Counted from the first letter of the stretch, positions 1-21,029 are shown. The stretch is DNA of 64,000 nucleotides from Escherichia coli (GCF_022846255.1 NZ_AP025682.1); one strand, 5' to 3'. Notes: generated by a model not told the origin, from the sequence alone. Translations and numbers: made by a program.

Positions 1-371
1 CGTTGCGAGAAATCATAATAACGGAGGCGGAAAGGATCTTTGATCGCCACAAAAATCTTGCTGGCCACTTGTGCGTAGTCGGGTTCTTCTTGTCCCGGAT
101 AGGCTTCATTGAGGTGCCCAACCAGACATAACTCCGCTTCCTTACGCGTCATTCCAGGCCGGCGCTCGCGGTCAGCATAATAAAGCATGGCGTCAAAGAG
201 ATACATGATTGCCGCCAGCGCATCAAGCTCAACACCATCGAACGGATTTCGCTGAAGGGCGCTATATATTGAATCCAGCGTCCGCACGACCAGCAAGGCG
301 TGAGACTGAATAGACAGCTCACGACGTGCCATTGATTCATTACGAGCCTGCTCCAAAAACCCTAGCGACAT
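1..371 (-). CDS. hypothetical protein, N-terminal part (gene runs off the left edge)
   Basis: Absent from the ORF track because it is open to the window edge. My translation of the minus strand from the ATG at 371-369 reads MSLGFLEQARNESMARRELSIQSHALLVVRTLDSIYSALQRNPFDGVELDALAAIMYLFDAM... with no stop down to base 1. It is divergent from the WYL regulator gene. No family recognised. Confidence 0.4.
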   Translation of the reverse strand, partial: MSLGFLEQARNESMARRELSIQSHALLVVRTLDSIYSALQRNPFDGVELDALAAIMYLFDAMLYYADRERRPGMTRKEAELCLVGHLNEAYPGQEEPDYAQVASKIFVAIKDPFRLRYYDFSQ

Positions 372-416
372 AACATTCTCCCTCTGAGACGGAAGCCACT
401 ATAGTACTCCCCTGCC

Positions 417-443
417 AATTAAGCAAAGAAACTTTGCTTAATT
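417..443. promoter_or_regulatory. perfect 12-bp inverted repeat in the divergent promoter region (candidate operator of the WYL regulator)
   Basis: AATTAAGCAAAG-aaa-CTTTGCTTAATT followed by a T-run. It lies between the two divergent genes (371 and 547). There is no upstream plus-strand gene for it to terminate. Confidence 0.35.
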
Positions 444-546
444 TTTTTTTATAGCAATGTTATTTGTTTTGATGTCATTCGCCTTCTATACTCAGTCGGT
501 ATATCAAACCGCAATTGATTAACCTGCAAATAAGAATAAAACTGAT

Positions 547-1440
547 ATGTACTACTCAAAGTTTCTTGAGAAACACAAATCCCCCCTCAGCCACGCACAA
601 TGGTTGCGCTTGCGCTATATTGAGCGCCAGCTACTGTGGGAACGAAAAGTCACTTCGCGCATGATTGCTGAAGAGTTTGGCGTCTCGGCGCAACAAGCTC
701 GTACTGATGTAAGAACCTATATGGAGGTCGCTCCAGGCAATGCTATTGAGAAGGGGGCCGGCCGAAAAGGGTATTTCCCCAGTACGACGTTTACGCCTGT
801 TTTGCTGGGAGACAACGATCTGGTCTGGCGTGCGACGGTAGAATTTCAACCGCCGCAAGCGGCCCACGCGCAGGAAATCCCGCTCATCCATCGCGCCGTG
901 CATAGCCGCACGCTGGCAATTTTTTTGTCAGCAATCGAACAGAAAGGACAAGTAAAAGTGACTTATGCGTCAATGGAAAACCCGGAAGGCATATCTCGTA
1001 CACTAAGCCCTACGGTAATTATCACCGTTAACGGGCGTCAGCATGTGCGAGCCTATGACTGGGGAAGTTCGGCGTTTAAGGACTTTGTTTTGGCGCGATT
1101 TCTGGACTCGCCGGAACTGATTGTTCCTGCACCCGCCCCGCCACGCAAAGATACCGCGTGGGAGGTCATAATCCCCGTGCGTTTTATCGCAAATCCAACA
1201 CTAAACAAAGCGCAACAAGAGGTAATTAAGCGGGACTATTTACTTGAACCCTCTGAATTCAACATTCGTGCACCAATGATTTTTTATTTATGCCCTGAAA
1301 ACAATCTGCCTAAAACAGATGATGAATATGCACAAGCTACTGACGCCAGCAGCCACGGCCCCTTTATCTACCCTGTTCTAGCTGTGCACGCCCAAACAGG
1401 GGAGCCTATTCATAAGTACCGCCATGCAGGTGAGAGATAG
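547..1440 (+). CDS. wHTH + WYL-domain transcriptional regulator (BrxR/CapW-like)
   Basis: The N-terminal segment ...VTSRMIAEEFGVSAQQARTDVRTYMEV... looks like a winged HTH. The central segment VKVTYASMENPEGISRTLSPTVIITVNGRQHVRAYDWGSSAFKDFVLARF fits the WYL-domain pattern (beta-rich, R.Y..... F.L.R). A hairpin at 1477-1503 follows the stop. Confidence 0.55.
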   Translation: MYYSKFLEKHKSPLSHAQWLRLRYIERQLLWERKVTSRMIAEEFGVSAQQARTDVRTYMEVAPGNAIEKGAGRKGYFPSTTFTPVLLGDNDLVWRATVEFQPPQAAHAQEIPLIHRAVHSRTLAIFLSAIEQKGQVKVTYASMENPEGISRTLSPTVIITVNGRQHVRAYDWGSSAFKDFVLARFLDSPELIVPAPAPPRKDTAWEVIIPVRFIANPTLNKAQQEVIKRDYLLEPSEFNIRAPMIFYLCPENNLPKTDDEYAQATDASSHGPFIYPVLAVHAQTGEPIHKYRHAGER

Positions 1441-1619
1441 ACATTCTGTTTACTAATAATTTATAGCCATTTTCTGCTCCTGCATCAGAGATATGATGCA
1501 GGAATATTAAATACCAGCCACCTATAAATTATGATTTATTAATTTCTGATTCAGTTAAATCCCTCTGAAAATAGACCCGTTTTAGTTCCATGCATCTTTA
1601 GAAATTCCGACCAAATAAT

Positions 1620-1930
1620 GGGGTCGGCAAACATCTATTTGAGACGTTGGTTCTCATCCTCAAGATCCTTGATTATTTTAATATCAGAAGATTCCATACC
1701 GCCGTATCTGGACTTGCAGTTGTAGTAAGTGGCTTAAGATAAGCCGGCCTCCCGGCAGACATCTTTAACAGTTTGCCCGTATTCAAGCGATTTAATCACG
1801 GCGATAATCTGATTCTCAGTAAAAGGGACTTTACGCATAGCGATCTCCTTCATTGGCAGATTGATTATGCCGGAGGATCTCTAAATGTTAATGGCACGAT
1901 TATGCGGGATATTTACAATACCAGTCCAAC
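1620..1930 (-). mobile_element. IS3-family insertion sequence fragment (orfA remnant with two in-frame stops, 3' part deleted)
   Basis: Minus-strand translation from the ATG at 1848 gives MRKVPFTENQIIAVIKSLEYGQTVKDVCREAGLS*ATYYNCKSRYGGMESSDIKIIKDLEDENQRLK*MFAD. This is the conserved IS3-family OrfA HTH/leucine-zipper sequence, broken by TAA at 1734-1736 and a TAG further on. No orfB follows. A TG-initiated end lies near 1928-1930, abutting the truncated integrase. Confidence 0.65.
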
Positions 1931-1948
1931 CCTCAGCTTACTGCAATG

Positions 1949-2818
1949 TCAATCAAGAGGGATGGTCCACATTGACGTATCAAAATCGATCTCTGACCAG
2001 CGAGCAAAACGTAGCTCACTGGAGCGAATAAAGATAAGCAGAGTGAGTTCCGTTGCCCAGCGGGTTAGCGGCCTGCCGGTATAGCCGTCTATTTTCTCAA
2101 GTAACTCAGGGATGCGCTTTAACTCCAGCGCCGGACGATGCTGTCGATTACTGGAAGCAACCGCCCCCGCCATCTCTTGTGCCGGGTTATAATCAATTAA
2201 TCCACTTTGCACTGCATAACGCATGATGGCCGTGGTGCGCTGTTGAAGGCGGGAAGCCACTTCAAAACGTCCAGATTTCTCCACGGCTTTAATGGGAATT
2301 AACAGATCGCGGGTGCCCAGTTCAGCAATATTGCGAGCAACAATTGTTGGGAAGATATTGTCCTCCAGGCTCTTTTTTCCACGATTAGCATGATCTTCCG
2401 ACCATTTTTGGTTGGTTACGAGCCACTCTCTGGCAACCTTCTCGAAAGTAATAATCTCTTTCGCCTGCTCTTCTTTCACAGCACGTTTATGCTCACGAGG
2501 ATCGATACCAGCAGCGACCAGCTTTCTGGCCTCTTCCCTTTTCTTCCGCGCATCCGCCAGCGAAACATCCGGGTAAACGCCGAACGCCATCAAATGTTGT
2601 TTACCACCAAAACGGAAACGAAATCGCCAATACTTTGAACCGCCAGGTTTTACAAGTAAAGACATGCCGTCGCCGTCAACAAGTGAATACTCTTTCTCCT
2701 CAGGTTTTGCAGGACGAACTTTAGTATACGTTAGGGCTATAGTGGTCTTCCTTCCATTGGTATCTCGTGAGTATACAAGCAATATCGAATCGGCAAATAT
2801 ACTTATAAGTATACTCAC
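1949..2818 (-). pseudogene. P4-type tyrosine integrase, inactivated (start codon lost, C-terminal catalytic half deleted)
   Basis: It aligns by eye to the intact island integrase (e.g. RFEVASRLQQRTTAIMRYAVQSGLIDYNPAQEMAGAV vs RLEVASRLQQRTTAVMRYAVQNGLIDYNPAQDMSGAI). The position matching Met1 (MALT...) is ATA at 2738-2740 (IALT). Homology stops at ...SEIDFDTSMWTIP, before the HxxR/Y catalytic region, where the IS fragment begins. Confidence 0.8.
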
Positions 2819-2903
2819 AAGCCTGTTGATGTGGGTTGAGTCAGGTTGACTTCAGTTGAGGAGAAAAGCTGGAAAAGCCTTGCGTAGCGCGGATTTCAGG
2901 CAT

Positions 2904-2927
2904 AAAAAAAGACCTCAGTTGAGGTCT
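2904..2927 (-). terminator. rho-independent terminator (displaced native leuX terminator)
   Basis: An 8-bp stem AGACCTCA/TGAGGTCT with a run of 7 T on the minus strand, lying immediately after the partial tRNA 3'-end repeat. Confidence 0.55.
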
Positions 2928-2940
2928 ATTTACATACTTT

Positions 2941-2963
2941 TGGTGCGAAGGCCGGACTCGAAC
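2941..2963. repeat. distal att direct repeat: copy of the leuX 3' end
   Basis: TGGTGCGAAGGCCGGACTCGAAC matches the 3' end of the tRNA at 21030-21053 (TGGTGCCGAAGGCCGGACTCGAAC) except for one missing C. Confidence 0.85.
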
Positions 2964-2990
2964 ATATTAATTATCCCGTTGTATTTAAGG

Positions 2991-3200
2991 CTATTTTATC
3001 AAAATCATTATTGAAGTACCATCATTAATACCATCATAGGTATTGTTCTCCTTTGGCAACAGTTCTTTGATATCGAAATACTTTAACGAACTTTTTATGA
3101 CATCATACTTTGAAGAAAAAATCACATACTGATTTTCATCCAGTACATCTTGCAAGACAAGGTATAAAACAGGGACTACGATTAAAAATAGCAAAGTCAT
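2991..3200 (-). CDS. hypothetical small protein with N-terminal hydrophobic helix
   Basis: The ORF alone (69 aa, MTLLFLIVVPVLYLVLQ...). No recognisable family, and the region is very AT-rich. Confidence 0.2.
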   Translation of the reverse strand: MTLLFLIVVPVLYLVLQDVLDENQYVIFSSKYDVIKSSLKYFDIKELLPKENNTYDGINDGTSIMILIK

Positions 3201-3685
3201 TCACTAAATGAATTCAAAATCAGTGATGTTCTTATCTGCAAGAATATAATATATTTAAAAGATTATAAGCAATATATAAATAATAATATAGCTTTAAAAA
3301 AACACACATGAATTAGAAGTTAAATACATTAATTAAAGAAACAAATAAGTAAGAATTTTGTTTTTAAATAACTCATGCAAACGCATCGTTTATTTATATT
3401 AAAGGAAAATGATGAAATCCAATCTAAATTTAAATAGCTACATTACAAACGAATAGAAAAAGAAGCATTTTCCATGTTAAACTACTATCTTGGTGAAGAC
3501 AGGGGGTATAGCCTTCTGCGGTAGCCTACGCTCTTCGAATGCAAAGCAAGAAAATAACCTTTATAATCAAATTGTTATGCAATGCGCTTGTAGAGCAAAG
3601 GTATCTTAAACGAATAGGTTTAACAGTTAAAGCCTCTTTACATAGGCTGAACAAGGGCAGTACTTGAAAATGATAAAATTGGGGT

Positions 3686-5371
3686 ATGTTTAAAATTATG
3701 AATGCCCATAGTTTAGAGATGAGAAAAGAGTTAGGAGCATATTATACTCCAAGTGCTCTTAGTCAAGTGATGTCAGATTGGGCAATTAGAAGACCAACTG
3801 ATAAAATACTTGAGCCAAGTTTTGGAGGCTGTGGCTTTTTAGAAAGCTGTGAAAAGAGCCTCATGGAGATAGGCTGCATAAACCCAATGGAAAATTTATT
3901 TGGGGTTGATGTAGACCAAAAAGCCTTTGATACTCTCAAAAAAAAATATGGGCATTTATTAATAAAAAAACATTTCATTTTAAGTGATTTCATTAACGTA
4001 TTTCCAAAAGATTTTGGCATTGAAGATTTTGAGGTTATCATTGGGAACCCTCCTTATATCTCTATGCATAATATGAGTTATGAACAAAGGAAGTCCTGTG
4101 AAAAAGTTTTTGCTGACTCACCTTTTAAAACAAAAACATTAGGACGCAATGCAAGTCTTTGGGGGTTTTTCTTACTCCATGCATTAAGCTTCATTCGAGA
4201 AAATGGACGAATAGCGTGGGTATTACCGAGTAGTTTTTTAAATGCCTATTATGCGAAAGAGCTTATAAGAATTTACAAAAATCATTTTAACCATCTAAAA
4301 ATAATAAAGATAAATGAAAGACTTTTCAAAAATGAAGGTGCCGATGAAATGTCAGTACTTTTTTTATGCGATGAGTTTCACAGGACACCTATCAATAATG
4401 GATACGTTTCAATTGGATTTGCTGACACATTAAATGAACTAACCAGCATAATGACTGGAACTAAAGAAAACAAATTAAATAGCTCTGAAAATTACAAATA
4501 TAATATATTAGATATTGACACATTAAATGTGATATCGTCTATAACAGAACATAAGTACAGTTTAAAAATACAGGATATTGCTGATATAAAGATTGGGATG
4601 GTAACCGGCATGAACAACTTCTTTATATTGGATCAAAATCAAATTTTAAAACATAATTTAGACAATAAACATTTTAGACCAGTTATTTCACGATTTTCAC
4701 ATTTGAAGGGAATTCACCACACATTAAAAAGACATACGAAGTTAATTGCAGACAATAAAAAAGGATTGCTATTACACGTCAGTCCAGATGATTTATATGA
4801 AAAACATAGTCCGTTGAGAAAATATTTATCACAAGTTGATAGAAAAGAACGAGTCAAAAACCGCACATTCAAAAAACGAAAAAAGTGGTTTCAACCAGAT
4901 GATGGTATTTACCCAGACGCATTTTTTTCATATATGGTTCATGAGTTTCCCAGAATGATATTAAATAAAGGGAAAGTTAACTGCACTAACTCAATACATC
5001 GTATCTTTTTCAAAGATATAGCATCTAATAAATTAAAAAAAGCATGTTGCATATCTCTTTTATCAACATTTTCACAACTTTCTGCCGAACTTGAAGGTCG
5101 GTCATATGGCTCAGGTGTGCTAAAAATAGAGCCTACCGCAGGAAAGAACATATCATTCTTAATTAAAGATGATTTAATACACGAGTTAAGCAACTTAAGT
5201 AAAGAAATAGATCAATTGCTTTTAAATAATGAAACAAGCAATGCCACTGCTTTAGTTGATAAGTTTTTTGTTGATAAGGGACTAATTAGCTTAGATGAAT
5301 TGAAAAGTCTTAAAAAAGGGTTATTCAGATTAAGAAAAGATCGATATAAAGGGGTCAAAAATTATGAGTGA
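3686..5371 (+). CDS. N6-adenine DNA methyltransferase, gamma class (Eco57I/TaqI-like) with its own C-terminal target-recognition domain
   Basis: Motif order is GAYYTP (aa 17-22), then the AdoMet motif I EPSFGGCGF (aa 43-51), then the catalytic motif IV NPPY (aa 121-124). A C-terminal TaqI-like specificity signature is present: IKIGMVTGMNNFFIL. Confidence 0.85.
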   Translation: MFKIMNAHSLEMRKELGAYYTPSALSQVMSDWAIRRPTDKILEPSFGGCGFLESCEKSLMEIGCINPMENLFGVDVDQKAFDTLKKKYGHLLIKKHFILSDFINVFPKDFGIEDFEVIIGNPPYISMHNMSYEQRKSCEKVFADSPFKTKTLGRNASLWGFFLLHALSFIRENGRIAWVLPSSFLNAYYAKELIRIYKNHFNHLKIIKINERLFKNEGADEMSVLFLCDEFHRTPINNGYVSIGFADTLNELTSIMTGTKENKLNSSENYKYNILDIDTLNVISSITEHKYSLKIQDIADIKIGMVTGMNNFFILDQNQILKHNLDNKHFRPVISRFSHLKGIHHTLKRHTKLIADNKKGLLLHVSPDDLYEKHSPLRKYLSQVDRKERVKNRTFKKRKKWFQPDDGIYPDAFFSYMVHEFPRMILNKGKVNCTNSIHRIFFKDIASNKLKKACCISLLSTFSQLSAELEGRSYGSGVLKIEPTAGKNISFLIKDDLIHELSNLSKEIDQLLLNNETSNATALVDKFFVDKGLISLDELKSLKKGLFRLRKDRYKGVKNYE

Positions 5372-7673
5372 AGATATTCTTTTTTTGAAGGATAAGATGA
5401 AAGCCCTCCTGGATAATGAGGCTCTCGATTATGATAAAGTATTAGAAACAGCAGTAAAAATCACCGAAAAAGACAACAACAATATTAGATTTTCTGTAGA
5501 TGCGAATTTAGTTAGAAGATTAGGTGAGCAGTTAGTCGCTAAAAAAACTACTGCTGTCAGTGAATTGGTGAAAAATGCTTATGACGCAGATTCGACATTA
5601 GTAAATGTATATTTCGAATTGAACGAAGCAAATCCTCGAATAGTCATATTCGATGACGGCACAGGTATGTCAAAGGAAGATATTATCAATGGATTCATGC
5701 GAATAAGCACAAGTGAAAAAGAAGATAACTCTGTTTCAGAACGATATCAGAGACTAAGAGCAGGTAGAAAAGGTATTGGGCGTTTTTCTACACAGCGATT
5801 AGGAAATTATTTAAAAATAATTACCAAGCAAGAAAATGAAGAGTTAGGATATTTAATAGAAATTAACTGGCAGCAGTTTTCAAAAAAGAAAAATATATCC
5901 TTCATTGCTAACACTATCTCAAAAATCGATGTGGATTTCATTCATGGAACAAAAATAATAATAGAAGATCTGAATGATAAAGATTGGTCTGATGGGAACA
6001 TAAAAACGGCTTATAAATATATTAAGAGCATTATAAATATTGCCCCAAGCGAGACAGATCCAGGTTTCCAAGTAAAGTTCTATTATAAAAATGCCAATGG
6101 CTATGAATTAGTTGCAGATGAGAAAACTGAAATTTTTTCTGATAGTGATGCTCATATTACAGCAACACTTGAAAATGGAAATGCTGTAGTGAGAGTTAGC
6201 AGTGAAACCCTTGGCATAAAAAATGAAAGCATAGATGTATGGTATGATGAAAAAAATAACATACGAAAATTCTCACATATAAACTCTCCAGTAAAGCTTG
6301 ATGCATACTATTTCTCATTAGCAACAGTTAACTCCAGAAAACAAGCGGCATATTTACGTGAAAATGGCGGAATAAAAATCTATCGAAATGGATTCAAGGT
6401 TTCTCCTTATGGAGAGCAGTATGATGACTGGACGGCTCTTGATGACTCGGTTCGAAGGAGAAAGATATTACCCCCTCATGGTAATCAAAACTTCTTTGGA
6501 CACGTCAAAGTTGAAGACCTAAATGGAATAGACTTTGAAGAAACGTCCTCAAGGGAAGGTCTGATTCATACCGATGCCTTTCAAGAACTTCGCCTCTTTG
6601 TATATAAAGCACTGACGGCTGCGGTAATAAGAATTAGTGAAGCCAGAAATATAAAAATAAATCCAAATGACCGTAGCTATGTTAAAGAAACTAAACCAAC
6701 AATATCAGTCAAAGATAAATTAAATATTGTATCTGAAACGATAAGCTCGGTTAGTAAATTGGTAGATGCAGCAACATCTGTTGATGACGTTTCAAGTGAT
6801 GGTGTCATTAATAACATTGAAGATAAAAGTATAAGAAACAAAATTATTGAAGATCTCCATGAAGCCGCAGATGAGCTAAAACAAGCGAGTGTGATATCTC
6901 AATCTTTAATCGATGAAATTGAGCTTCTTAGAGTGCTTGGCGCTATGGGCCTTGCTATTGGTGAGTTTACACACGAAATAAATTTATCAATAACAAGTTT
7001 GAGTATTAACGTTCAAAACCTTAAACAGTCTAAATTATTAGAGGAAGATAGAGACTCTGCTCTAAATAGCCTTGAAAATAATATTGCAACATTAAAATCA
7101 TTTACTAAATTTTTTGACAGTACTATACGTGAGAATGTAAACAGAAATAAGAAAGTTATTGAGATAAGAGACTCTATTGAGCCATTTTATGAATCGATGA
7201 AACCAATAATAGAACGCAAAGGAATTCAGTTTGCAATACATTATGAAGGTTATGAACTTTTTACGAAGCCGATTCATGTTTCAGAGCTATATTCTGTATT
7301 TATAAATCTCTTTACGAATGCATATAAAGCAATACTTCGTTCTGGAACAAATCCACGAAAAATGTCTTTAACTGCGAAAAAAGATAGTGAAGATATAATT
7401 ATCCGATTCGAAGATAGCGGTGATGGAATTGAACCTGCAAATAGAGAAAGAGTTTTTGAGCCTTTCTATACAACAAGTACACCATCAGGACCTTTTGAAA
7501 GTGATGATTTATCATTAAAAGGAATGGGATTGGGGTTATCAATCGTACGTGATCTCGTTGAATCCATGTCTGCAGAAATATCTATAGTTGATGCATCCGA
7601 TGGTTTTACAACGTGCTTTGAGTTGAGAATTCCAAAAGCTGATGATAAGGAAATACCAGATGACATCTATTAA
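5364..7673 (+). CDS. double-GHKL protein: N-terminal MORC/MutL-like ATPase module + coiled region + C-terminal histidine-kinase core (H-box, N, G1, G2 boxes)
   Basis: N-terminal module: ELVKNAYDAD (N71, D74), DDGTGM (aa 97-102), GRKGIGRFS (aa 134-142). C-terminal module: IGEFTHEINLS (H537), INLFTNAYKA (N652), EDSGDGI (aa 683-689), GMGLGLSIV (aa 720-728). No predicted TM segment. The start overlaps the methyltransferase stop by 8 nt. Confidence 0.7.
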   Translation: MSEDILFLKDKMKALLDNEALDYDKVLETAVKITEKDNNNIRFSVDANLVRRLGEQLVAKKTTAVSELVKNAYDADSTLVNVYFELNEANPRIVIFDDGTGMSKEDIINGFMRISTSEKEDNSVSERYQRLRAGRKGIGRFSTQRLGNYLKIITKQENEELGYLIEINWQQFSKKKNISFIANTISKIDVDFIHGTKIIIEDLNDKDWSDGNIKTAYKYIKSIINIAPSETDPGFQVKFYYKNANGYELVADEKTEIFSDSDAHITATLENGNAVVRVSSETLGIKNESIDVWYDEKNNIRKFSHINSPVKLDAYYFSLATVNSRKQAAYLRENGGIKIYRNGFKVSPYGEQYDDWTALDDSVRRRKILPPHGNQNFFGHVKVEDLNGIDFEETSSREGLIHTDAFQELRLFVYKALTAAVIRISEARNIKINPNDRSYVKETKPTISVKDKLNIVSETISSVSKLVDAATSVDDVSSDGVINNIEDKSIRNKIIEDLHEAADELKQASVISQSLIDEIELLRVLGAMGLAIGEFTHEINLSITSLSINVQNLKQSKLLEEDRDSALNSLENNIATLKSFTKFFDSTIRENVNRNKKVIEIRDSIEPFYESMKPIIERKGIQFAIHYEGYELFTKPIHVSELYSVFINLFTNAYKAILRSGTNPRKMSLTAKKDSEDIIIRFEDSGDGIEPANRERVFEPFYTTSTPSGPFESDDLSLKGMGLGLSIVRDLVESMSAEISIVDASDGFTTCFELRIPKADDKEIPDDIY

Positions 7674-8763
7674 CCTACTTTATATCGATGATGATCAGCC
7701 TCAGCAAGTAAAGGGTTTAATTGAAGCAATAATCAGTAAAGCGAGTTTTGATTTAAATATAACTCATAAACCGCCGACGAAAATGAGTGAAATAGCCATA
7801 GAGTTGAGACAAGGTTATGATGGTATCATCATAGATCAAAAACTTGACAGCTTTGTTGAGGGAGTAGAACCAGTTGATTACTTTGGTGCCGCGTTAGCAC
7901 AAAATTTGCGAACACTCATGGCGGGTAAGTCAGATAATATATCTTATAAGCCAATAATTTTACTCTCTCTCGAAAGCTTATTAATTGAATATTATAATCC
8001 CGATTCAAGCTCGCATGATCTATTTGATTTAGTTTTGAGTAAAAGCATATTAGAACAACCAGAATTGTTAGAAAAAAAAGTTCACTTAATAAAATCTATT
8101 GTGAATGCTTACAAACGTGCACATTCGGAAGACTCGTTATATCAATTGCTTTCTCTGAGCAGTAATTATTCATTGCTTGATAAAAGATTTGAAATATATA
8201 TTTCTCAGTATGATAAAGATATACATAAGCTCGTCACATCCATACACTCCACACTTCTGAGAAGTAGTGGCATGTTAGTTTCTGAGATAACTTTGGCAAC
8301 CAGACTGGGTATTAATATTGAAGAATCGCCAGACTGGCACCAAGTAATTGGGCACCTTGAGGAATATAAATACAATGGCATATTCTCTGATTATTATAAA
8401 AGATGGTGGTGGGCAGATGTAGAGTTGTGGATAAATAAAAAGCTTAACTGCCCAATAATTAAAGGATTAACCTCAGAAAAAAGAGTGGAGATCATCAAAG
8501 AAAAACTTGGCTTAGAACGATTGATGCCAATTCATAGCGTACATCCAGGCCAAAGCACCAAGTTTTGGGTTAATTGTATCATCAGTAAAGAACCTCTTGA
8601 TACAATAGATGCTCTTCGTGCATCATCTATGGAATTAAAACCTTGGGAAGATGATAAATACCTTTCAATTAAAACAGTGTTAGAGAGACGGGCCGAAAAA
8701 TATAAAGTACATCCAGAAGATAGAACAAAATTGGATCGAATTCGGGCGAGGTTTAAATTATAA
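7660..8763 (+). CDS. receiver (REC)-like domain protein with uncharacterised ~230-aa C-terminal domain
   Basis: Numbering from the MTSINLLY start. The REC signature residues are in the right order: LLYIDDD (D10-12), GIIIDQKLD (D59), PIILLSL (S103), LVLSKS (K128). The C-terminal part (…YKRWWWADVELWINKK…) matches nothing I recognise. The ORF overlaps the upstream stop by 14 nt. An alternative start at 7642 is possible. Confidence 0.5.
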   Translation: MTSINLLYIDDDQPQQVKGLIEAIISKASFDLNITHKPPTKMSEIAIELRQGYDGIIIDQKLDSFVEGVEPVDYFGAALAQNLRTLMAGKSDNISYKPIILLSLESLLIEYYNPDSSSHDLFDLVLSKSILEQPELLEKKVHLIKSIVNAYKRAHSEDSLYQLLSLSSNYSLLDKRFEIYISQYDKDIHKLVTSIHSTLLRSSGMLVSEITLATRLGINIEESPDWHQVIGHLEEYKYNGIFSDYYKRWWWADVELWINKKLNCPIIKGLTSEKRVEIIKEKLGLERLMPIHSVHPGQSTKFWVNCIISKEPLDTIDALRASSMELKPWEDDKYLSIKTVLERRAEKYKVHPEDRTKLDRIRARFKL

Positions 8764-9506
8764 TGAACAATAATACAACTTTGTTAGACGATATGTGTAG
8801 GCTCAGGGACTTTTTATATGATAGCCGCATATGCCCAGATATTAATCCTCTCAACCGTTTAATCAGTAAACTTAATGCAAATCTCCACTCCGAAACAGGG
8901 GAGGACTTTGAATACTCTTTAGACGATTTAGTATTTTATCTTAGCGAAAAATCTGGAACAATTTGTCCGACCCAAATTACACCCAAAGAAAACCCTATTG
9001 AAATACATTTGGAACTTATATTAAAAAGTGAAGGCCCTTATGAATTTTCGAAGATTAAAGAACTTTCAGGGCAATTACGACTTAAAGCTGAGTGGATCAA
9101 TGACACAACAGAAAAAATTGAGATAAAAACATCACATAGTGCTTGGCATTTTGATTATCATGTTCCTCAAATGGGGGATGGCGTAAATTCATTTACTCAT
9201 CCTCAATTCCATTTACAAAATGGAGGAAACAGGCTGACTGATAATTTAAATGACTATGGAGAGTTAATGATTCTTGATGCTCCAAGACTACCTTTACCTC
9301 CTATGGATGTGATATTAGCCATTGACTTTATTATTTCAAATTTCTTTGGTTCTATTTGGCAACAAGCATTATGTGATTCAGAATACATTGATGTAGTTAA
9401 AAGAGCACAAAAAGCATGGTGGAAACCTTATTATGAAGGTATAAGTCAACACTGGTCTGGCAATGGCTCAGGAATATCCAATATCCTAATTCCAAACCTT
9501 CTGTAG
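8763..9506 (+). CDS. hypothetical protein, last gene of the operon (His-rich segment)
   Basis: ATG overlaps the upstream TAA (TAATG). 247 aa. Contains SAWHFDYHVPQMGDGVNSFTHPQFHLQNGG. No family recognised. Confidence 0.5.
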   Translation: MNNNTTLLDDMCRLRDFLYDSRICPDINPLNRLISKLNANLHSETGEDFEYSLDDLVFYLSEKSGTICPTQITPKENPIEIHLELILKSEGPYEFSKIKELSGQLRLKAEWINDTTEKIEIKTSHSAWHFDYHVPQMGDGVNSFTHPQFHLQNGGNRLTDNLNDYGELMILDAPRLPLPPMDVILAIDFIISNFFGSIWQQALCDSEYIDVVKRAQKAWWKPYYEGISQHWSGNGSGISNILIPNLL

Positions 9507-9716
9507 TGTATCAAAATCTGTTAACCATCTCCAATTACGAATAGCAATATTTATATAAAACTAATTTTTTATTTTAAACAACTTCAGCAAGGGCTAACTC
9601 TCAGCATCTCCTTCGGTGATACTTTGAGTTGCTCCTTGTTTTTTCGCCCTTTGGTTGAAAAAATTAAAAGCAAAACCAACCCTATACATTGACTTTTTCA
9701 GCATCTATCATATAAA

Positions 9717-9747
9717 TAAAATAAGCATAATGGACATGCTTATTTTA
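9717..9747. promoter_or_regulatory. 12-bp inverted repeat upstream of mobC (candidate oriT / mob promoter element)
   Basis: TAAAATAAGCAT-n7-ATGCTTATTTTA, about 25 nt before the mobC-like start. Location is typical for small-relaxase oriT, but no nic consensus was recognised. Confidence 0.3.
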
Positions 9748-9771
9748 CTTTACTATATGAAAGGAGTTCAT

Positions 9772-10185
9772 ATGAATGATAGGAATCATACTTTTAATAA
9801 GTTCGAGCCATTCAGAAGTTGTAGCTATGAAAATTTTACTTCTGCTAAAACACTCTCCCAGCAGACACGTTCTCATTGTATTAGTATCAGATTAAATGAT
9901 GCCGAGTTATCTTACGTTGATGGCTTACGAGAAGATCTCAACCGTGCTGTTTGGATACGTATGTCAGCATTGAATCGTCTCCCTTCCAAAATTCCTGAAA
10001 TAAATCTAATTGTCTGGAAAGACCTTGCCAAAGCATCTCAGAATCTGAATAACCTCGTTCAGCATCTCAACACTAAATCACACGATAGTCCTTTTACTAT
10101 CACCGAAATTTATACGGTACAAAAAAGAATAAAAGCACTAAGAGATGCCCTTCTGTCAGCAAATCGATCTGTCAGTGATAAATAA
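9772..10185 (+). CDS. MobC-like relaxosome accessory protein
   Basis: AAGGAG lies 6 nt upstream of the ATG at 9772. IRLNDAELSYVDGLRE... followed by a helical C-terminus is the usual MobC/ribbon-helix-helix pattern. The stop overlaps the relaxase start (TAATG). Confidence 0.6.
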   Translation: MNDRNHTFNKFEPFRSCSYENFTSAKTLSQQTRSHCISIRLNDAELSYVDGLREDLNRAVWIRMSALNRLPSKIPEINLIVWKDLAKASQNLNNLVQHLNTKSHDSPFTITEIYTVQKRIKALRDALLSANRSVSDK

Positions 10186-11372
10186 TGAAAGGGATGCAAA
10201 AAATCCGCAGAGGAAAGAGTTTTGCTGGTGTCGTCCTCTATGCGTTAAAGCCCGGTTCTCATCATAAAAAAGACCCTATCGTGATCGGTGGAAATATAAC
10301 GATAGTTGGCAATGCCGCTAAAGATCTGATCGCTGAATTTGATAGCACCAAACAGCTTCGCCCTGACGTGCAAAAGGCTGTTTGGCACAACTCGCTTCGC
10401 TTACCTAAAGGTGAATCACTAACGGCTAAACAGTGGTCTGAAATAGCAGATGATTACATGTCCCGCATGGGCTTCTCTGAAACGCATCTCAGATGCTACG
10501 TCCTACATGACGACGAAGATGGCCAGCACATCCATATCATCGCCAGCAGAGTGTCTCTTGATGCCGGAAAGCTCTACCTCGGCAGGAATGAGAACCTGGC
10601 AAGCACGAGAATAATTCAGCAACTTGAAAGAAATTACAATCTGACAAGAACCAAAGGGCCAGGAGCTAAAGCATCTACATCTTCTCTTTCCTCTAAACCG
10701 AAACATAAAAAATCACGTAATGAGGCTATGTTAGAGGAGAGAACTGGTGAACCATGCCCTAAATCCATCATCCAAAGGGCTATAGATTCGATAACATTAA
10801 ATCCTATAGCAATTGATGACTTCGTTGAAAAGCTGAATAGCATAGGGATTACGGCGAAAAGCAATATTTCTTCAACTGGCAAGATGAATGGATTTTCCTT
10901 TGAATGCAAAGGTGTTGTGTTCAAAGCTTCCCAGCTTGGCAAGAAGTATAGTTGGAAGAACCTGGAATCAATGATTTCAATGAATTACAACTCACACATT
11001 GGTGATGAAAAACCTGTCATCCCTGAACCTGCTGCCCATCGCAGCAACGAAGCTGTCATACCTATAGTGGAAGACTATTCTGATGAAAAGATTTACCCTG
11101 AGATAAGGGTACCCTTACCAAGACCTGACACAGCGCCCACAAAACCTACAAGCATGACAATGCGTTGGATCGCAACCATACCTTATCTTGTGAGTGTTAT
11201 TAGCGCACTTAAAACGATGCGTATCCCCTTTCTAAAGGCGTTCAATGGCCCAAGGAAGTTCTTTTCCGTGTCCATGATTCACCTGTCCTCTGTAAGCCTG
11301 AAACAGACCAAAACGAATAATTTCAAACCAAAAAGTTCCCACCAAAAGGCCCACAAGCCCCTTCTCCCCTGA
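10185..11372 (+). CDS. mobilisation relaxase (MobA/VirD2-type relaxase/nuclease domain)
   Basis: N-terminal FAGVVLYALKP (candidate catalytic Tyr). Conserved VWHNSLRLPKGESL block. Histidine triad YVLHDDEDGQHIHIIASRV. The C-terminal third is low-complexity and may be degenerate. Confidence 0.75.
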   Translation: MKGMQKIRRGKSFAGVVLYALKPGSHHKKDPIVIGGNITIVGNAAKDLIAEFDSTKQLRPDVQKAVWHNSLRLPKGESLTAKQWSEIADDYMSRMGFSETHLRCYVLHDDEDGQHIHIIASRVSLDAGKLYLGRNENLASTRIIQQLERNYNLTRTKGPGAKASTSSLSSKPKHKKSRNEAMLEERTGEPCPKSIIQRAIDSITLNPIAIDDFVEKLNSIGITAKSNISSTGKMNGFSFECKGVVFKASQLGKKYSWKNLESMISMNYNSHIGDEKPVIPEPAAHRSNEAVIPIVEDYSDEKIYPEIRVPLPRPDTAPTKPTSMTMRWIATIPYLVSVISALKTMRIPFLKAFNGPRKFFSVSMIHLSSVSLKQTKTNNFKPKSSHQKAHKPLLP

Positions 11373-11580
11373 TTTCTCCACAGATAAACGATCGTTATAA
11401 TCGATCGATTTATTTATATTGATAGTCAATAACAATCAATAGGTAAATAATCGATCGGTACAAGCAATTTGCTATGTCCTTAGAAGTGTTCAAAATGTAC
11501 TTTCATGCATAAATCGGATAATAGGTTGATTTTACTAGCCTATTTTTCTATCCACGTATCGAACATGCAGGGACTGAAGT

Positions 11581-12171
11581 ATGAGATATCTCATGATGAA
11601 GCGTGTAATGTTAGCAATCCTTCTTCCGTTTATTGTTGGATGTTTATTTGGTGCTAAAGCATTATCAGAGTATTGGGTTGTGTGGTTTTTTGTTTGTGCA
11701 ATGTTGATGATCACAGCCTGGGGCGTGTGGTTAAAAAATAAAAACAGAGGTTCCAGCTTCAGCTACCTGAATGATAATGAAGATGGTGTATTTATCTACA
11801 AATTTCATAATCAAGAGATGCGTTTAGATAAAGCCAAAAAAGAGCTTTATTTAAAAGATGGGTTAAACGAAAAAACCTACACTTTTTCCGATGTTGAAAG
11901 CTGGGAATATAAAATTAGCACAGGTGGTCAGATCCTCACTTCAGGTCTTAACCCTACAACTAACTTGATTAACAATAAGATTCTTGGTGAAAACATTAAT
12001 GACACCGGCTTCTTTATCAAAGTTAAAGACATCAGAAACCCTGAGTGGCATATTCGATTCTTCCCTCAAGAAGGATCTTATAAAGATCAGAGGGGATTAA
12101 TTAGCTTAAAAAAACAGATGATGCAGTGGATGACCGTTTTTGACTTAATCGTAAATGCTGATACAAAGTAA
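11581..12171 (+). CDS. hypothetical membrane protein (two N-terminal hydrophobic helices, possible lipobox IVGC)
   Basis: ORF with N-terminal MKRVMLAILLPFIVGCLFGAK and YWVVWFFVCAMLMITAWGVWL. The soluble C-terminal domain is unassigned. Confidence 0.45.
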   Translation: MRYLMMKRVMLAILLPFIVGCLFGAKALSEYWVVWFFVCAMLMITAWGVWLKNKNRGSSFSYLNDNEDGVFIYKFHNQEMRLDKAKKELYLKDGLNEKTYTFSDVESWEYKISTGGQILTSGLNPTTNLINNKILGENINDTGFFIKVKDIRNPEWHIRFFPQEGSYKDQRGLISLKKQMMQWMTVFDLIVNADTK

Positions 12172-12182
12172 GGAAAACAAGA

Positions 12183-12473
12183 ATGAAAAAAACCATGCTA
12201 CTATTATTAGCTTCAATGTCGCTGACAGGTTGCAACAGTGAACCATCCGATGCAGATATTTCAAAAGCCATGCAGAGCTTTATGAGTGAGATGCATGGTA
12301 CCCTGAACTCGTCTAAAAAACTTGCGTGTAAAGATATAGAGAGTGATGGCAGTTATCTCTGCTCTGTAGAGTTCGATGCTAAACTTCCAATCGTGGGCCA
12401 TAGAGAATCGACGCTAGAATTAAAGTTTATTAAATCCGATGACTCCTGGAAAGCAATGGCTCCATCTAAATAA
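12183..12473 (+). CDS. small lipoprotein
   Basis: AAGGAA SD. Signal peptide plus lipobox MKKTMLLLLASMSLTGC. Confidence 0.6.
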   Translation: MKKTMLLLLASMSLTGCNSEPSDADISKAMQSFMSEMHGTLNSSKKLACKDIESDGSYLCSVEFDAKLPIVGHRESTLELKFIKSDDSWKAMAPSK

Positions 12474-12566
12474 ACTTAATTATATTTGACAATAGAAAAA
12501 TAGTACGTCATAGATAGTAAATTGATAACAACCAGTGGGTTGAGCCACTGGCTGTTATCCCAATGG

Positions 12567-12644
12567 TTAATACACGGATGTACTAACCACCATTAAAAGG
12601 ATAAACAACATCACCTTTAATGCACGGGAGCGTTTTTTAGACAT
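12567..12644 (-). CDS. 25-aa basic/hydrophobic peptide (MSKKRSRALKVMLFILLMVVSTSVY), candidate small membrane toxin
   Basis: Below the ORF-track cutoff; found by hand. AAGAAGGAG sits 6-7 nt upstream of the ATG. The peptide has a charged N-terminus followed by one hydrophobic helix. Confidence 0.35.
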   Translation of the reverse strand: MSKKRSRALKVMLFILLMVVSTSVY

Positions 12645-12730
12645 ACGCCACTCCTTCTTTTTCATCATCAACCTTATTGTTGGTGATGTTGCCTCTTTGG
12701 GCTGATGCAGATTATCATTTTAGAATACTA

Positions 12731-12757
12731 AAAGCATCCTTTCGGATGCTTTTTTTC
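12731..12757 (+). terminator. rho-independent terminator
   Basis: AAAGCATCC-tttc-GGATGCTTT followed by TTTTT. Confidence 0.6.
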
Positions 12758-12850
12758 GCCTTGAAAATATTAGCAAGATAATAATCCATAAAGGATAATA
12801 TAAAAACCAAAATAATATGCTACGGTAGTTGTTATAAAAATCACATAAAA

Positions 12851-13273
12851 CTACAGTCCATATTTTTTCCTTTTATCCTTCATCAATAATTCTCTTTTTA
12901 GGGTAGAAGCCTCATGTTTCCTTCTCTCATTAATATAGACTTTTTCGGTTCTACTACCATTGCTCACAATGAAATTGATAAGTGAAGAGCATACGTTTTT
13001 CATACGCTCTTTATCGAGCATGTCATTTTCAATATTATTGATATTGCAGTAATAAGAAAGTAGTAAAAAATTCAACACTACTTCCCTGTTTGAGAACGTT
13101 AGTTTTTCTATTTCAGGCTGGTATTTAATGTAGAACCCGGCACAAAACAGGTATGATTGTTCGATAATTTGTTGCTCTGAGAAGTCTGATTCAGAGAGTT
13201 TATCAACGAATCGATCAAGTAGAAGAAGATACCTTTCCATCAAATGAATATTTATTTTTTCCATAACATGCAT
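12851..13273 (-). CDS. hypothetical protein
   Basis: ORF only. The likely start is the second ATG (13264, MEKINIH...), which has AAGGA 8 nt upstream. Confidence 0.4.
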   Translation of the reverse strand: MHVMEKINIHLMERYLLLLDRFVDKLSESDFSEQQIIEQSYLFCAGFYIKYQPEIEKLTFSNREVVLNFLLLSYYCNINNIENDMLDKERMKNVCSSLINFIVSNGSRTEKVYINERRKHEASTLKRELLMKDKRKKYGL

Positions 13274-13357
13274 CCTTGCAATTTATTTTGCCATCCTGAC
13301 AATTAAATAAATACCATAATTATTAATCACGTCAATAGTTAAAACCTATCTATTTTA

Positions 13358-13756
13358 TTAAAGGTATTTTGCAGGTAACGGATTATTAAGTTCTTCAATC
13401 GTTATTTGTTTAAGGTGAGCATTATAAAGCCATACTTTGAACTGCTCTAAATAGCGTTCATTTAATGCCTTCAAAGCCTCATTTTCTGCTTCAAGTCTTC
13501 TAATTCGTTGAGAAGCCACTTTTAAATTAGCAGGTTTTACAGTATGTATTGCACCAGATTTGATAGTGGCCTTTTTCACACTGAAGCTTTCTGCAATCCT
13601 TACATGACTACTTAAGGATTGTCTTGATGGTCTTTTCCCAATAATCCTTACTAACCTGTCGCACAAAGCATCCCAGGTTAGTTTTTCATCTATAGACCAT
13701 GTGTTAATAACATCTACAATCTTCTTCTCATGATAACCATTTATATGCTTAGCCAT
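13358..13756 (-). CDS. small accessory protein of the recombinase module (coiled-coil C-terminus; TnpC-like position)
   Basis: Its start directly abuts the stop of the upstream recombinase gene (13757). RRLEAENEALKALNERYLEQF is a heptad-like segment. The call is positional only. Confidence 0.4.
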   Translation of the reverse strand: MAKHINGYHEKKIVDVINTWSIDEKLTWDALCDRLVRIIGKRPSRQSLSSHVRIAESFSVKKATIKSGAIHTVKPANLKVASQRIRRLEAENEALKALNERYLEQFKVWLYNAHLKQITIEELNNPLPAKYL

Positions 13757-15388
13757 TTATTCTCCTTTTTTTATTCTCTTATGGAATTCATACCATCTAT
13801 CAGCATTTATGTTCCCATCATTTTTATCATACAGTGTTCTTTTTGAAATTTTATCGTGAATTTTTGAAATCGTTTCGTTATCTAAACCAGAATTCTCAAT
13901 CGGATAATGTTCACACGGCTTAAACGCATATGAGTGCTTGCAGTAGCCATGTTTTGATACCAGTACTGCACCACTACTAAGTGAATCAAACTCATTAAGA
14001 ACCACCACTGGAATATCCTTTATTCTGTGCTCATTAACACACACTGATAACTTTTGTTCTCTTATTGCTTTAGACATTTGAAGATGCGATCTGTGGTCAT
14101 AAGAAAAATTTTGAGAAATAAGCTTACGTCCAGACCAGCGAGCAATACTAAACTCATCCATACCATTTATTTGAGCAAAAGTGTTGAGAAGATGCCTCAG
14201 TTGATGTGTTCTTAGCAAATATGGGCTACCATCATCATTTATATAACCATGTCTTTTAAATACATTTAAATATCCTTTTATATAATCAGAATCAACGATA
14301 TCAGTTTTAAAAAAATTCGTTGTAGGTCTGAATAACTTATCTAACATTTCCTTTTTATTTTGATTTAACTGTCCTTCAGTTAACAAGCAAAGCGCATTAG
14401 AATATTTGATTTTCTTCTCTCTATCATACCAAAAGAGATCTGGAGGTATATTTTCTTTAAGGGTTCCCATCGTTGAATTAGAGTAATTCTTTTGAATTTC
14501 AGCAGCCAATAATCTCGCTTGACTTGATAATTCTTTTAATCTGCTAATAGCCTTTTTTGCTACAGGTATCATTAAAGTTGGAATCCATTTTATATTGCCT
14601 TCATACCCTTTTGCTGAAAAAAATCTTAAACCGTATCTTTGAATGCCCTTTCCATCACATTCTGTAATTTCACAATCCACTGGCAAAGCTAAAATTTCCG
14701 ATATCCTACTCGGTGCACACATAAGTAAAGCAAGCACAGATGTAGTAAATATATCTCTTGACGATAATTGTTCATCCCGCTTTGAAAAAATCTCAGCAAT
14801 CGCAATAACTGATTTGATATCAGGCAATCTAGAATGGCCTTCCAGTGAAGAATCATAACCAGTCCAAGACTGAGTAATCCTATACCTAATTGGACTTATC
14901 CAAAATAAATAAGATGAGTTAGTCATCCTATTATCATTTAAAAATGAACTCAATTTCTCAAGTTCTTTCCCAATAGCAAATGCATGTGCTTTAGAATACT
15001 TTTCAGAGGCTATCCTTATGCATTCATCAAAGATTGAATTGTTGCAATAGTTTACATTAGCTTCCATATTGATTTTAAGTAAAACGAATTCGACAATCTT
15101 CAACATTGATAATGTTGAGTGTTTCGTCTTAGATTTATTGAATGAATGCACATGCAACATATATGCTTTAGCAAAATTAATAAAGCTATCATCTAAGCAT
15201 TCTTTGCTGTTTAGGTTGTTTTTTGAGTTAAACTTAGTAAACCTATATAAACCTTTCCATTTATTGCTTTCCCAAGAAGTTGTTAAATTATTATTAGAAA
15301 TAGTACTCTTACAAAACTCGATGAACTTAATAACATTATCGTGAGGGTTGTTTTTATTGCTTGGTTCAAAAATAAATATATTGTTCAT
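13757..15388 (-). CDS. tyrosine recombinase, third of trio (543 aa)
   Basis: Catalytic signature in order: CAPSRISEILAL (Arg), THQLRHLLNT (HxxR), NFSYDHR (Tyr). Overlaps the upstream gene by 4 nt. Confidence 0.7.
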   Translation of the reverse strand: MNNIFIFEPSNKNNPHDNVIKFIEFCKSTISNNNLTTSWESNKWKGLYRFTKFNSKNNLNSKECLDDSFINFAKAYMLHVHSFNKSKTKHSTLSMLKIVEFVLLKINMEANVNYCNNSIFDECIRIASEKYSKAHAFAIGKELEKLSSFLNDNRMTNSSYLFWISPIRYRITQSWTGYDSSLEGHSRLPDIKSVIAIAEIFSKRDEQLSSRDIFTTSVLALLMCAPSRISEILALPVDCEITECDGKGIQRYGLRFFSAKGYEGNIKWIPTLMIPVAKKAISRLKELSSQARLLAAEIQKNYSNSTMGTLKENIPPDLFWYDREKKIKYSNALCLLTEGQLNQNKKEMLDKLFRPTTNFFKTDIVDSDYIKGYLNVFKRHGYINDDGSPYLLRTHQLRHLLNTFAQINGMDEFSIARWSGRKLISQNFSYDHRSHLQMSKAIREQKLSVCVNEHRIKDIPVVVLNEFDSLSSGAVLVSKHGYCKHSYAFKPCEHYPIENSGLDNETISKIHDKISKRTLYDKNDGNINADRWYEFHKRIKKGE

Positions 15389-17905: not shown

Positions 17906-18030
17906 TTTGACCTCATTCTTTACAAATTAATATCACTCTCACTTATTAAATATATTCCAATTCAAAATAATTCAAATTTTTTACAATGGCTTTAGTTTAT
18001 TTGGTATATATATTAATGGCTTGAAAAAAT

Positions 18031-18048
18031 TTATTTGACGTCAAATAA
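18031..18048. repeat. perfect 18-bp palindrome TTATTTGACGTCAAATAA upstream of the recombinase trio
   Basis: Read directly. A related half-site TACGTCAAATAT occurs at 18142-18153. Confidence 0.6.
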
Positions 18049-18287
18049 ACAGGTACGGCTAGTATTGAGTATCCATACCCGATATTAAGAAAACCATCTT
18101 CAACCCTTATAGCAAAAGCTCTGCTAGAAAAAAGGTAAAGAATTACGTCAAATATACTTATTTTTCAGATACAAACTTTACAAAGCCTCTTTTTTTTCAA
18201 AGCCACTAAGTAAACTCAAAAGATCTCTAAATTCCTTTTTCTTAATACATTATCAAAAGTTAAAAAATCCATGAAGCAGCATTCCTG

Positions 18288-18491
18288 TTAAGCGACATGC
18301 TTTCTTGAATTTTCGATAATTAATTGAATCCATTCATCGATTTCGCTTTCTACAAAAGCGGTAGCACGAATACCGATCTTTACTGGCTGTGGGAACCGAT
18401 TTTGGCTGATAAGACGATAGATCCACGCTTTACCAAATCCAGTTTTCTTCATGACTTCTGGTAAACGGATGAGACGAGCTTGATTTTCCAT
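18288..18491 (-). CDS. AlpA-family DNA-binding protein (excisionase/regulator type)
   Basis: From MENQARLIRLPEVMKKTGFGKAWIYRLISQNRFPQPVKIGIRATAFVESEIDEWI, the typical AlpA/MerR-like HTH sequence. I rejected the longer ORF start at 18575. Confidence 0.75.
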   Translation of the reverse strand: MENQARLIRLPEVMKKTGFGKAWIYRLISQNRFPQPVKIGIRATAFVESEIDEWIQLIIENSRKHVA

Positions 18492-18611
18492 ATGTATGTC
18501 CTCTGTTGTGTCTACAGGGCTACAGTACAAATGAATTTCGAATGGATGAAGCGAGATTACGAACATCAGAGCCATCCCTGGCTCGAAACTATGAGTCTCT
18601 GGAGATTCATA

Positions 18612-19481: not shown

Positions 19482-19592
19482 TAATGCCACTCCGTTGTAA
19501 AAAGTTTTACTTCGTAATAGCACATAAATCGCAAATAAAAAAATGGCGTCTCAATTGGTTATTGAATACGCCATTTTACTCATAAAAATCAG

Positions 19593-20840: not shown

Positions 20841-21029
20841 CAGTTGATACCTCCATTGTTGGTACCAAAATCAATCGAACCGAGAATACCATCAGTTATA
20901 CCATCATCGGTTGGTATATGTTCAAGGAATTGAGTAGACGTGAACAGACTAAGCCAAGTCAGAAACTCGCTTAACTTACTGTTTTTTTGGACTAAAGTAG
21001 ACGTTAGTAGACTTGAAAAAAGCTTTGTA

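Follow-up and report, generated by a model that had tools for sequence, protein, structure and literature searches.

Which gene runs off the left edge of a leuX-linked stretch of Escherichia coli DNA, divergently from a WYL-domain regulator, and how did the segment that holds both come to be separated from the tRNA gene? The stretch is a window of 64,000 nucleotides (nt) from NZ_AP025682.1 (hereafter the window), of which the left edge (positions 1 to 2963) was analyzed. An initial annotation had described this edge as the product of tandem accretion at leuX, with six elements: an attachment (att) repeat, a terminator, an integrase pseudogene, an IS3-family fragment, a WYL gene, and an open reading frame (ORF) open to the edge. 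All six are present, with small corrections of their coordinates (Table 1). We propose, with a probability of about 0.8, that an older leuX island and a second, 18-kb island lie here in tandem and that the older one carries at this point the control end of a brxR|jetABCD cassette, in which the regulator BrxR would repress a type III Wadjet operon through a palindrome. The gene assignments and their architecture can be stated with high confidence, while for the repressor-operator model, which comes from sequence comparison, the odds are modestly better than even.

The jetA fragment, its operon, and brxR

The ORF at the edge begins with an ATG at position 371, with a Shine-Dalgarno-like GAGGGAG 7 nt upstream, and is free of stop codons over the 123 codons that precede the cut made by the window. 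Searched alone, the 123-amino-acid (aa) fragment matched the PADLOC profile JetA3 (PDLC00564; E = 1.4e−81) over profile positions 1 to 123 of 488, which gives a name to the divergent gene that the initial annotation had left without one. The fragment is identical at 122 of 123 residues to a 488-aa protein of our reference for comparison, a 43-kb locus of E. coli CFSAN061771 (L001, one of nine sampled E. coli loci, L001 to L009). In this locus, the operon jetA-jetB-jetC-jetD encodes proteins of 488, 298, 1,478, and 347 aa. JetA and JetC match the PADLOC profiles JetA3 (1,129.6 bits) and JetC3 (3,367.8 bits) end to end, JetC matching seven further JetC3 models as well, and JetD matches JetD3 (806.8 bits; residues 5 to 351 against the whole 347-position profile) and the Pfam family JetD_C (JetD_C/Toprim domain; 37.2 bits against a cut-off of 22). 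The JetB-position gene (264 to 298 aa) is always the second of the operon, in E. coli, in other genera, and in distant relatives.

JetC (about 1,478 aa) matches no Pfam family, NCBIfam has no match for BrxR or any of the Jet proteins, and sequence searches of the PDB with JetA, JetB, JetC, and JetD returned nothing meaningful. JetC3 proteins (L001:13567-18003 and L010 to L016) have canonical Walker A (VNGGGKST) and signature (GSGGQ) motifs as well as a long coiled coil. Their Walker B motif reads FLLAD-N, with an asparagine at the position of the catalytic glutamate of ABC/SMC ATPases, and does not vary across eight genera. From a shallow alignment, in which the members share 73 to 88% identity with the first sequence, AlphaFold gave a poor model of JetA3 (pLDDT [predicted local distance difference test] of 56 and pTM [predicted template-modeling score] of 0.36), whose top Foldseek match was MukF (E = 0.011; TM-score [template-modeling score] of 0.23/0.33). 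The predicted order of elements in JetA, namely, a helical N terminus, a small beta-hairpin, a helical bundle, and a C-terminal winged-helix-like unit, fits a kleisin. The model and this order are a weak hint of a kleisin/MukF-like fold.

The initial annotation had made its interpretation depend on a WYL fold in the product of the gene at 547 to 1440, and profile searches found one. The Pfam WYL family (29.1 bits against a cut-off of 21.8) and the PADLOC WYL model (9.9e−16) both matched, precomputed matches exist to PF26109 (WHD_BrxR) and PF26107 (BrxR_CTD), and PGAP names the protein “BrxR family helix-turn-helix transcriptional regulator.” Among PDB entries, the best match was the BrxR structure 7T8K (E = 1.5e−28; residues 10 to 239), followed by CapW (7TB5, 2.5e−23), 9C5G and 7TB6 (about 1e−17), and BrxR 7QFZ (1.7e−13); all BrxR/CapW alignments taken together cover residues 10 to 262. 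The product thus has the three domains of the BrxR/CapW architecture: a winged helix-turn-helix (wHTH), a WYL domain, and a WCX domain. Its gene shows no nucleotide difference from that of L001. Residues S142 and R184 (equivalent to S158 and R200 of E. coli CapW), R164, and R168 are invariant in nine orthologues. In CapW, single-stranded DNA (ssDNA) is contacted by the two arginines of the RWHVR motif, S158, and R200 (PMC11662680).

All eight contigs that carry a BrxR 100% identical to that of the window also carry the 488/298/1,478/347-aa operon or a disrupted copy of it. From this we strongly infer that jetBCD lie to the left of base 1 in this genome as well. The suggestion that a second defense locus starts at base 371 and runs leftward is therefore borne out, the fragment being JetA3 and its orthologue heading jetABCD in every contig examined. 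The link with a BrxR/CapW-type regulator also stands in that the neighboring operon is a defense operon; the system, however, is an anti-plasmid type III Wadjet and not BREX (bacteriophage exclusion) or CBASS (cyclic oligonucleotide-based antiphage signaling system).

The same arrangement extends well beyond E. coli. Scanning one genome per species, we found eight more loci, in Enterobacter, Pseudocitrobacter, Photorhabdus, Marinobacter, Pectobacterium, Oceanimonas, Endozoicomonas, and Carnimonas, with BrxR proteins 76 to 97% identical. The divergence of brxR from jetABCD is kept in all eight (the Carnimonas locus ends at a contig end), and the flanking genes differ among genera. In blastn comparisons, homology starts about 24 nt past jetD and stops 123 nt past brxR, which delimits a unit of 9.1 kb (L001:12475-21563). 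These comparisons point to brxR|jetABCD as a horizontally mobile five-gene cassette. At least 80% of it is held by 64 of 5,426 complete E. coli genomes, always on the chromosome. The JetA3 family is small (23 matches at E ≤ 1e−3 among 1.84 billion cluster representatives). Its distant members (28 to 35% identity) have the same four-gene layout and gene sizes, and none of the four such loci examined has a neighboring WYL gene. For that reason, BrxR looks like an addition specific to this gammaproteobacterial clade.

The divergent control region and its palindrome

Alignment of the brxR-jetA intergenic region from the nine genera revealed conserved blocks at the jetA ribosome-binding site, at both −10 boxes, and at a palindrome. 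In the window, the 12 pairs of this palindrome are all complementary (arms of 11 nt around a 5-nt spacer are an equally valid reading), and none of 500 shuffled sequences reached its score. We examined its symmetry in twelve sequences, i.e., the nine genera plus E. coli variants. Watson-Crick pairing in register was found in 125 of 144 cells, against 24 to 60 of 144 when the register was slid by 1 to 3 nt, and 6 of the 12 pairs showed two-sided changes. The same happens within E. coli. Positions 1 to 1948 of the window differ from L001 at six positions, two of which form the symmetric pair 420/440. This pair is T/A in the window and C/G in most other E. coli genomes, both giving perfect palindromes, and C/A in L009, a one-step intermediate. 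Since two-sided changes preserve the dyad, both between genera and among E. coli genomes, the palindrome is likely to be the operator of BrxR, as predicted from these comparisons. The 64-kb window and the 43-kb L001 locus contain one copy of it each. L007, a locus with split jetA and jetD, has in addition a G-to-T change in the core of the right arm.

The position of the palindrome fits such a role. It lies between the divergent −10 boxes, at about −26 to −52 relative to the predicted jetA start, and the predicted jetA −35 element sits within its left arm. The −10 boxes are conserved in eight of nine genera for both jetA (TATAGT) and brxR (TATACT; TACACT in L017). In silico, the locus therefore has what is typical of the family, here a predicted palindromic operator over the predicted promoter of the adjacent defense operon. 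The closest parallel is BrxR_Acin of Acinetobacter sp. NEB394 (7T8K/7T8L; PMC9122589), whose operator has 10-bp half-sites with a 5-bp spacer at −51 to −27 (PMC9122589) and thus resembles the palindrome described here in geometry and in its position over the −35 region. The inner half-site GTAAA of BrxR_Acin resembles GCAAA here (G[C/T]AAA), and the S-x-Q-Q of its recognition helix (S37-R38-Q39-Q40) is kept as S47-A48-Q49-Q50. The full-length wHTH-WYL-WCX organization is also that of CapW (7TB5, 7TB6, and 9C5G; PMC9122588 and PMC11662680) and of BrxR from Escherichia fergusonii pEFER (7QFZ; PMC9122601).

The palindrome center AAGAAACTTTG (426 to 436) has an exact inverted match of 11 nt in codons 4 to 7 of brxR (557 to 567). 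We rejected the latter as a second operator; these codons are not shared by other genera and the match is probably due to chance.

In the mechanism that we propose, a BrxR dimer would bind the palindrome, which covers the jetA −35 element, and would hold jetABCD repressed. Sensing of ssDNA or DNA damage by the WYL domain would release BrxR and raise the expression of Wadjet. The JetABC complex, resembling those of structural maintenance of chromosomes (SMC) proteins, would then load on small circular DNA, to be cut by the Toprim nuclease JetD. Release of BrxR by ssDNA or damage and cleavage of circular DNA are taken by analogy from CapW and type I Wadjet (PMC11662680 and references therein). 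We infer BrxR binding, repression, the inducing signal, and the anti-plasmid activity.

Two islands in tandem at leuX

The 3′ end of leuX is present as direct repeats, one within the intact gene (21030 to 21053) and one, with a 1-nt deletion, at the distal att site, where TGGTGCGAAGGCCGGACTCGAAC is the sole such match in the 64-kb window (0 expected). Beyond the latter stands the native terminator of leuX, a minus-strand stem AGACCTCAACTGAGGTCT (2927 to 2910) followed by TTTTTTT, which in genomes without a second island (e.g., L001) lies directly 3′ of the intact gene. The G+C content falls from 47% to 31% at about 2964 to 3000, being 44 to 49% to the left of this point and 30 to 38% within the 18-kb island.

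Comparison with other genomes gives the same picture. In L001, and likewise in L002, L006, and L009, the same brxR-IS-integrase-terminator segment (IS, insertion sequence) abuts an intact leuX and the second island is missing. In L004, L005, L007, and L008, the same slot is filled by another second island, of the CbtA/CbeA, RadC, and antirestriction type. The 18-kb island of the window is itself found in TUM11353, with 99.6% identity, beside a different resident array (type I restriction-modification and AbiE), and no complete E. coli genome holds both this island and the older segment. Its presence beside a different array, together with its own integrase and relaxase, identifies the 18-kb element as an independent integrative mobilizable island. 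The hallmarks of a tandem array are accordingly present: direct repeats of the 3′ end of the tRNA gene bracket the newer island, each island has an integrase on its tRNA-proximal side, and there are genomes with an empty site or an alternative occupant. Tandem accretion at leuX, as initially proposed, is corroborated by these empty sites and alternative occupants and by TUM11353.

The deleted att copy (TGGTGC-GAAGG) recurs in L004, L005, L007, and L008 (at about 12393), which carry the different second island, and TUM11353, with the island of the window, has a perfect copy (L018:12053). Because the same deleted copy stands beside different second islands and the copy of TUM11353 is perfect, the sequences suggest that the occupant of the tRNA-proximal slot was exchanged and that the older segment remained in place.

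In this scenario, bases 1 to 2963 would be the tRNA-proximal end of the older island, which would have been fixed in place when its P4-type integrase was cut by an IS3 element, itself later decayed. The 18-kb island would have entered leuX afterward, pushing the older island, the terminator, and the 23-nt att copy away from the tRNA gene.

The integrase of the older island is a pseudogene of the P4-type family and not a working member of it. It retains the domains Arm-DNA-bind_3 (1.5e−27) and Phage_int_M (5.1e−26), whereas a Pfam scan of it found no Phage_integrase catalytic domain, and the R-H-R-Y residues of a P4-type integrase are lacking. Residues 27 to 287 of the listed ORF align with residues 1 to 261 of the intact 415-aa integrase of the 18-kb island (63% identity), the pseudogene has ATA in place of the start codon, and PGAP flags the L001 copy as frameshifted and incomplete. 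The divergence from L001 leaps from 0.3% (1 to 1948) to 5.7% (1949 to 2900) exactly at the IS/integrase junction. The best full-length match to 1949 to 2900 among the 5,426 genomes is 97.1%, and 445 records match parts of it at 99% or more. Judging by these matches, the allele of this pseudogene appears to be a mosaic or a recombinant. The adjacent IS3 remnant consists of orfA only (HTH_Tnp_1, 67.8 bits, 9.5e−19; 82% identity to annotated IS3-family transposase genes), with no orfB to complete the orfA-orfB pair that a full IS3 element carries between inverted repeats.

To call the older island a remnant, as the initial annotation did, undersells the locus, since in relatives this is the head of a large live defense island. 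To the left of the cassette in L001 (1 to 12400), it encodes a PDC-S11 PDDEXK nuclease and two endonucleases, one a ScoMcrA-like, phosphorothioate-dependent SBD-HNH enzyme and the other of the HNH type. A truncated nanM, a type II Zorya system (zorA2, zorB2, and zorE), a member of the STY4851/ECs_5259 family, and a helicase of the DEAH-box type are also present there. The older leuX island of these relatives is a dense defense island.

Table 1. Features of the left edge of the window and of the island beside it (strand given where assigned)
Feature	Position	Strand	Basis or remark
jetA, type III Wadjet, predicted kleisin subunit	3-371	-	Codons 1-123 of ~488, exits left edge
Divergent brxR-jetA control region	372-546		175 nt; 172-183 nt in nine genera
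Predicted jetA promoter	398-426	-	-35 TTGCTT (426->421), 17-nt spacer, -10 TATAGT (403->398)
Perfect palindrome AATTAAGCAAAG-aaa-CTTTGCTTAATT, predicted BrxR operator	417-443		27 bp
Predicted brxR promoter	464-492	+	-35 TTGTTT (464-469), 17-nt spacer, -10 TATACT (487-492)
brxR, 297-aa wHTH-WYL-WCX regulator, BrxR/CapW family	547-1440	+	PDB, Pfam, PADLOC, PGAP
Cassette tail	1441-1563		Homology with Enterobacter and Pseudocitrobacter ends at ~1563 (= L001:21563)
IS3-family orfA fragment	1617-1838	-	74 codons, two in-frame stops
P4-type integrase pseudogene	1949-2740	-	N-terminal ~262 of ~415 residues; cut at IS junction
Native leuX intrinsic terminator	2910-2927	-	Terminator scan; now 18 kb from leuX
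Distal att repeat, TGGTGCGAAGGCCGGACTCGAAC	2941-2963	-	23-nt copy of leuX 3′ end with 1-nt deletion
Newer AT-rich integrative mobilizable island	2964-21029		G+C 30-38%
P4-type integrase, intact, 415 aa	19593-20840		18-kb island
Intact leuX, tRNA-Leu(CAA)	21030-21114	-	ARAGORN

Competing explanations and relation to known systems

Several observations weigh against the reading of a resident island headed by a BrxR-repressed Wadjet operon. The best complete-genome match to positions 1 to 2965 reaches 98.0%. For the 298-aa “JetB,” searches of PADLOC, Pfam, NCBIfam, and the PDB gave no match. Three of the nine genera (L013, L015, and L016) have a degenerate palindrome, and both predicted promoters fall below the threshold of the consensus scan, having been read from the sequence, with start sites that are likewise predictions (near 391 for jetA and near 499 for brxR). 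The WYL domain has RQHVR (R164-Q165-H166-V167-R168) instead of the RWHVR of the family, in all nine Wadjet-linked orthologues. Finally, decay is common in E. coli: among 95 genomes with a match of whatever extent, about 30 retain just a jetD-side remnant (jetD and part of jetC), an insertion sequence (IS66, IS3, or IS100) is annotated within the match in 4 of the 20 listed near-complete copies, and jet genes are split in three of the nine sampled loci (jetC in L002 and L004; jetA and jetD in L007). Such frequent inactivation of the operon agrees with the idea that an anti-plasmid system is costly to its carrier.

This decay, together with the pseudogenes that the adjacent integrase and IS have already become, speaks for the alternative that fares best, namely, that the cassette is dead here: to the left of the window, the jet operon would be truncated, IS-interrupted, or frameshifted, and the edge would be the stump of a decayed Wadjet. 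The visible part argues otherwise, since the 123 jetA codons contain no stop and share 99% identity with intact copies, brxR does not differ from that of intact loci, the palindrome is perfect, and six of the nine sampled E. coli loci are intact. We consider a dead cassette unlikely, and on these sequence comparisons the operon of this particular genome is probably intact.

Decidedly less likely is that BrxR acts as an activator, for example, a class II activator near −40 in the manner of DriD and PafBC, or as a regulator in trans of the whole island. The predicted jetA −35 is indeed weak (3 of 6 matches), the palindrome is centered at about −39, where class II activators bind as well, WYL activators exist (PMC11662680), and control at the level of the island was proposed by Picton et al. 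(PMC9122601). The protein, however, falls inside the BrxR/CapW repressor group. Island-wide control is further disfavored by the single copy of the palindrome in 107 kb (the window plus L001) and by the fact that, across nine genera, only jetABCD travels with brxR while the flanks differ. That the palindrome instead has a structural role, as an intrinsic terminator or a cruciform, is barely credible: a scan calls it terminator-like on the plus strand (12-bp stem, 3-nt loop, and T-run), but just 3 of the 12 stem pairs are G-C, no plus-strand gene lies upstream to be terminated, the T-run is not conserved in L012 to L017 whereas the dyad is, and the palindrome stands between two conserved divergent −10 boxes. 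The terminator reading was therefore rejected.

Under the preferred reading, in which BrxR represses jetABCD through this palindrome, the system differs from BrxR and CapW of known structure in two respects. The layout of divergent genes is shared, but the target is a type III Wadjet and not BREX or CBASS, and the motif is RQHVR and not RWHVR. In CapW, the tryptophan of this motif packs against the linker helix (PMC11662680); as a glutamine is found here, allosteric coupling may differ from that of CapW, by analogy. A bolder version, which we hold to be quite unlikely, is that this Wadjet is inducible and not constitutive, that BrxR with RQHVR senses ssDNA (e.g., the strand transferred in conjugation), and that the Walker B asparagine of JetC may make the complex work differently from the ATP-hydrolyzing, loop-extruding type I.

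Type I Wadjet (E. coli GF4-3 and Pseudomonas aeruginosa; Deep 2022 and Liu 2022, cited in PMC11662680) and MukBEF share with the operon of the relatives the order A-B-C-D, a JetD with JetD_C/Toprim domain, the Walker A and GSGGQ motifs of JetC, and the kleisin-like order of JetA. The operon differs from them in that its proteins bear no detectable sequence relation to solved Jet/Muk chains, its Walker B reads D-N and not D-E, and its JetB is without a model. The PADLOC type III models (JetA3, JetC3, and JetD3), matched over their whole profiles, place it within type III Wadjet, of which it is a small, sequence-isolated gammaproteobacterial branch with BrxR; a representative operon of this type is that of Bacillus thuringiensis (bioRxiv 10.1101/2025.03.10.642339). 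The islands themselves resemble other leuX arrays (the KpLE2/intB region and leuX pathogenicity islands; PMC7545054) in their P4-type integrases, 3′-end repeats, decayed integrases, and variable cargo. Unlike in the pathogenicity islands, the cargo here consists of defense systems and not of virulence genes.

Much of this is correct but already known. Colocalization of BrxR/CapW homologues with Wadjet has been published (PMC9122601, text on Fig. 8A; PMC11662680, discussion), the PADLOC models fit, and PGAP names the regulator and JetD. Island arrays with decayed integrases at leuX are likewise textbook knowledge (e.g., PMC7545054). The well-supported prediction of the operator, the definition of the cassette that travels across nine genera, the frequent decay of the operon in E. 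coli, and the RQHVR variant are incremental additions. The left edge, as a resident leuX defense island headed by a regulated anti-plasmid system, matters mainly as a correct annotation. Such a system could influence the range of plasmids, resistance plasmids among them, that the strain is able to acquire. It also offers ready-made material for asking whether Wadjet expression is inducible by damage or ssDNA, an idea that has so far rested only on colocalization statistics.

Some minor features remain. An Rfam scan of positions 1 to 3700 gave nothing credible. The cassette tail contains a 9-bp hairpin (1478 to 1486 and 1495 to 1503) that is not followed by a T-run. The 18-kb island encodes an Eco57I-like N6-adenine methyltransferase (3686 to 5371) whose gene overlaps that of a 769-aa GHKL-ATPase protein (5364 to 7673), followed by two ORFs without a family (7642 to 9506) and a MobA/VirD2 relaxase (10185 to 11372). 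It also carries two adjacent tyrosine recombinases (15385 to 17905), by a 543-aa protein annotated as DNA binding, and a DUF6387 protein. This island may hold an unclassified methylase-linked defense module.

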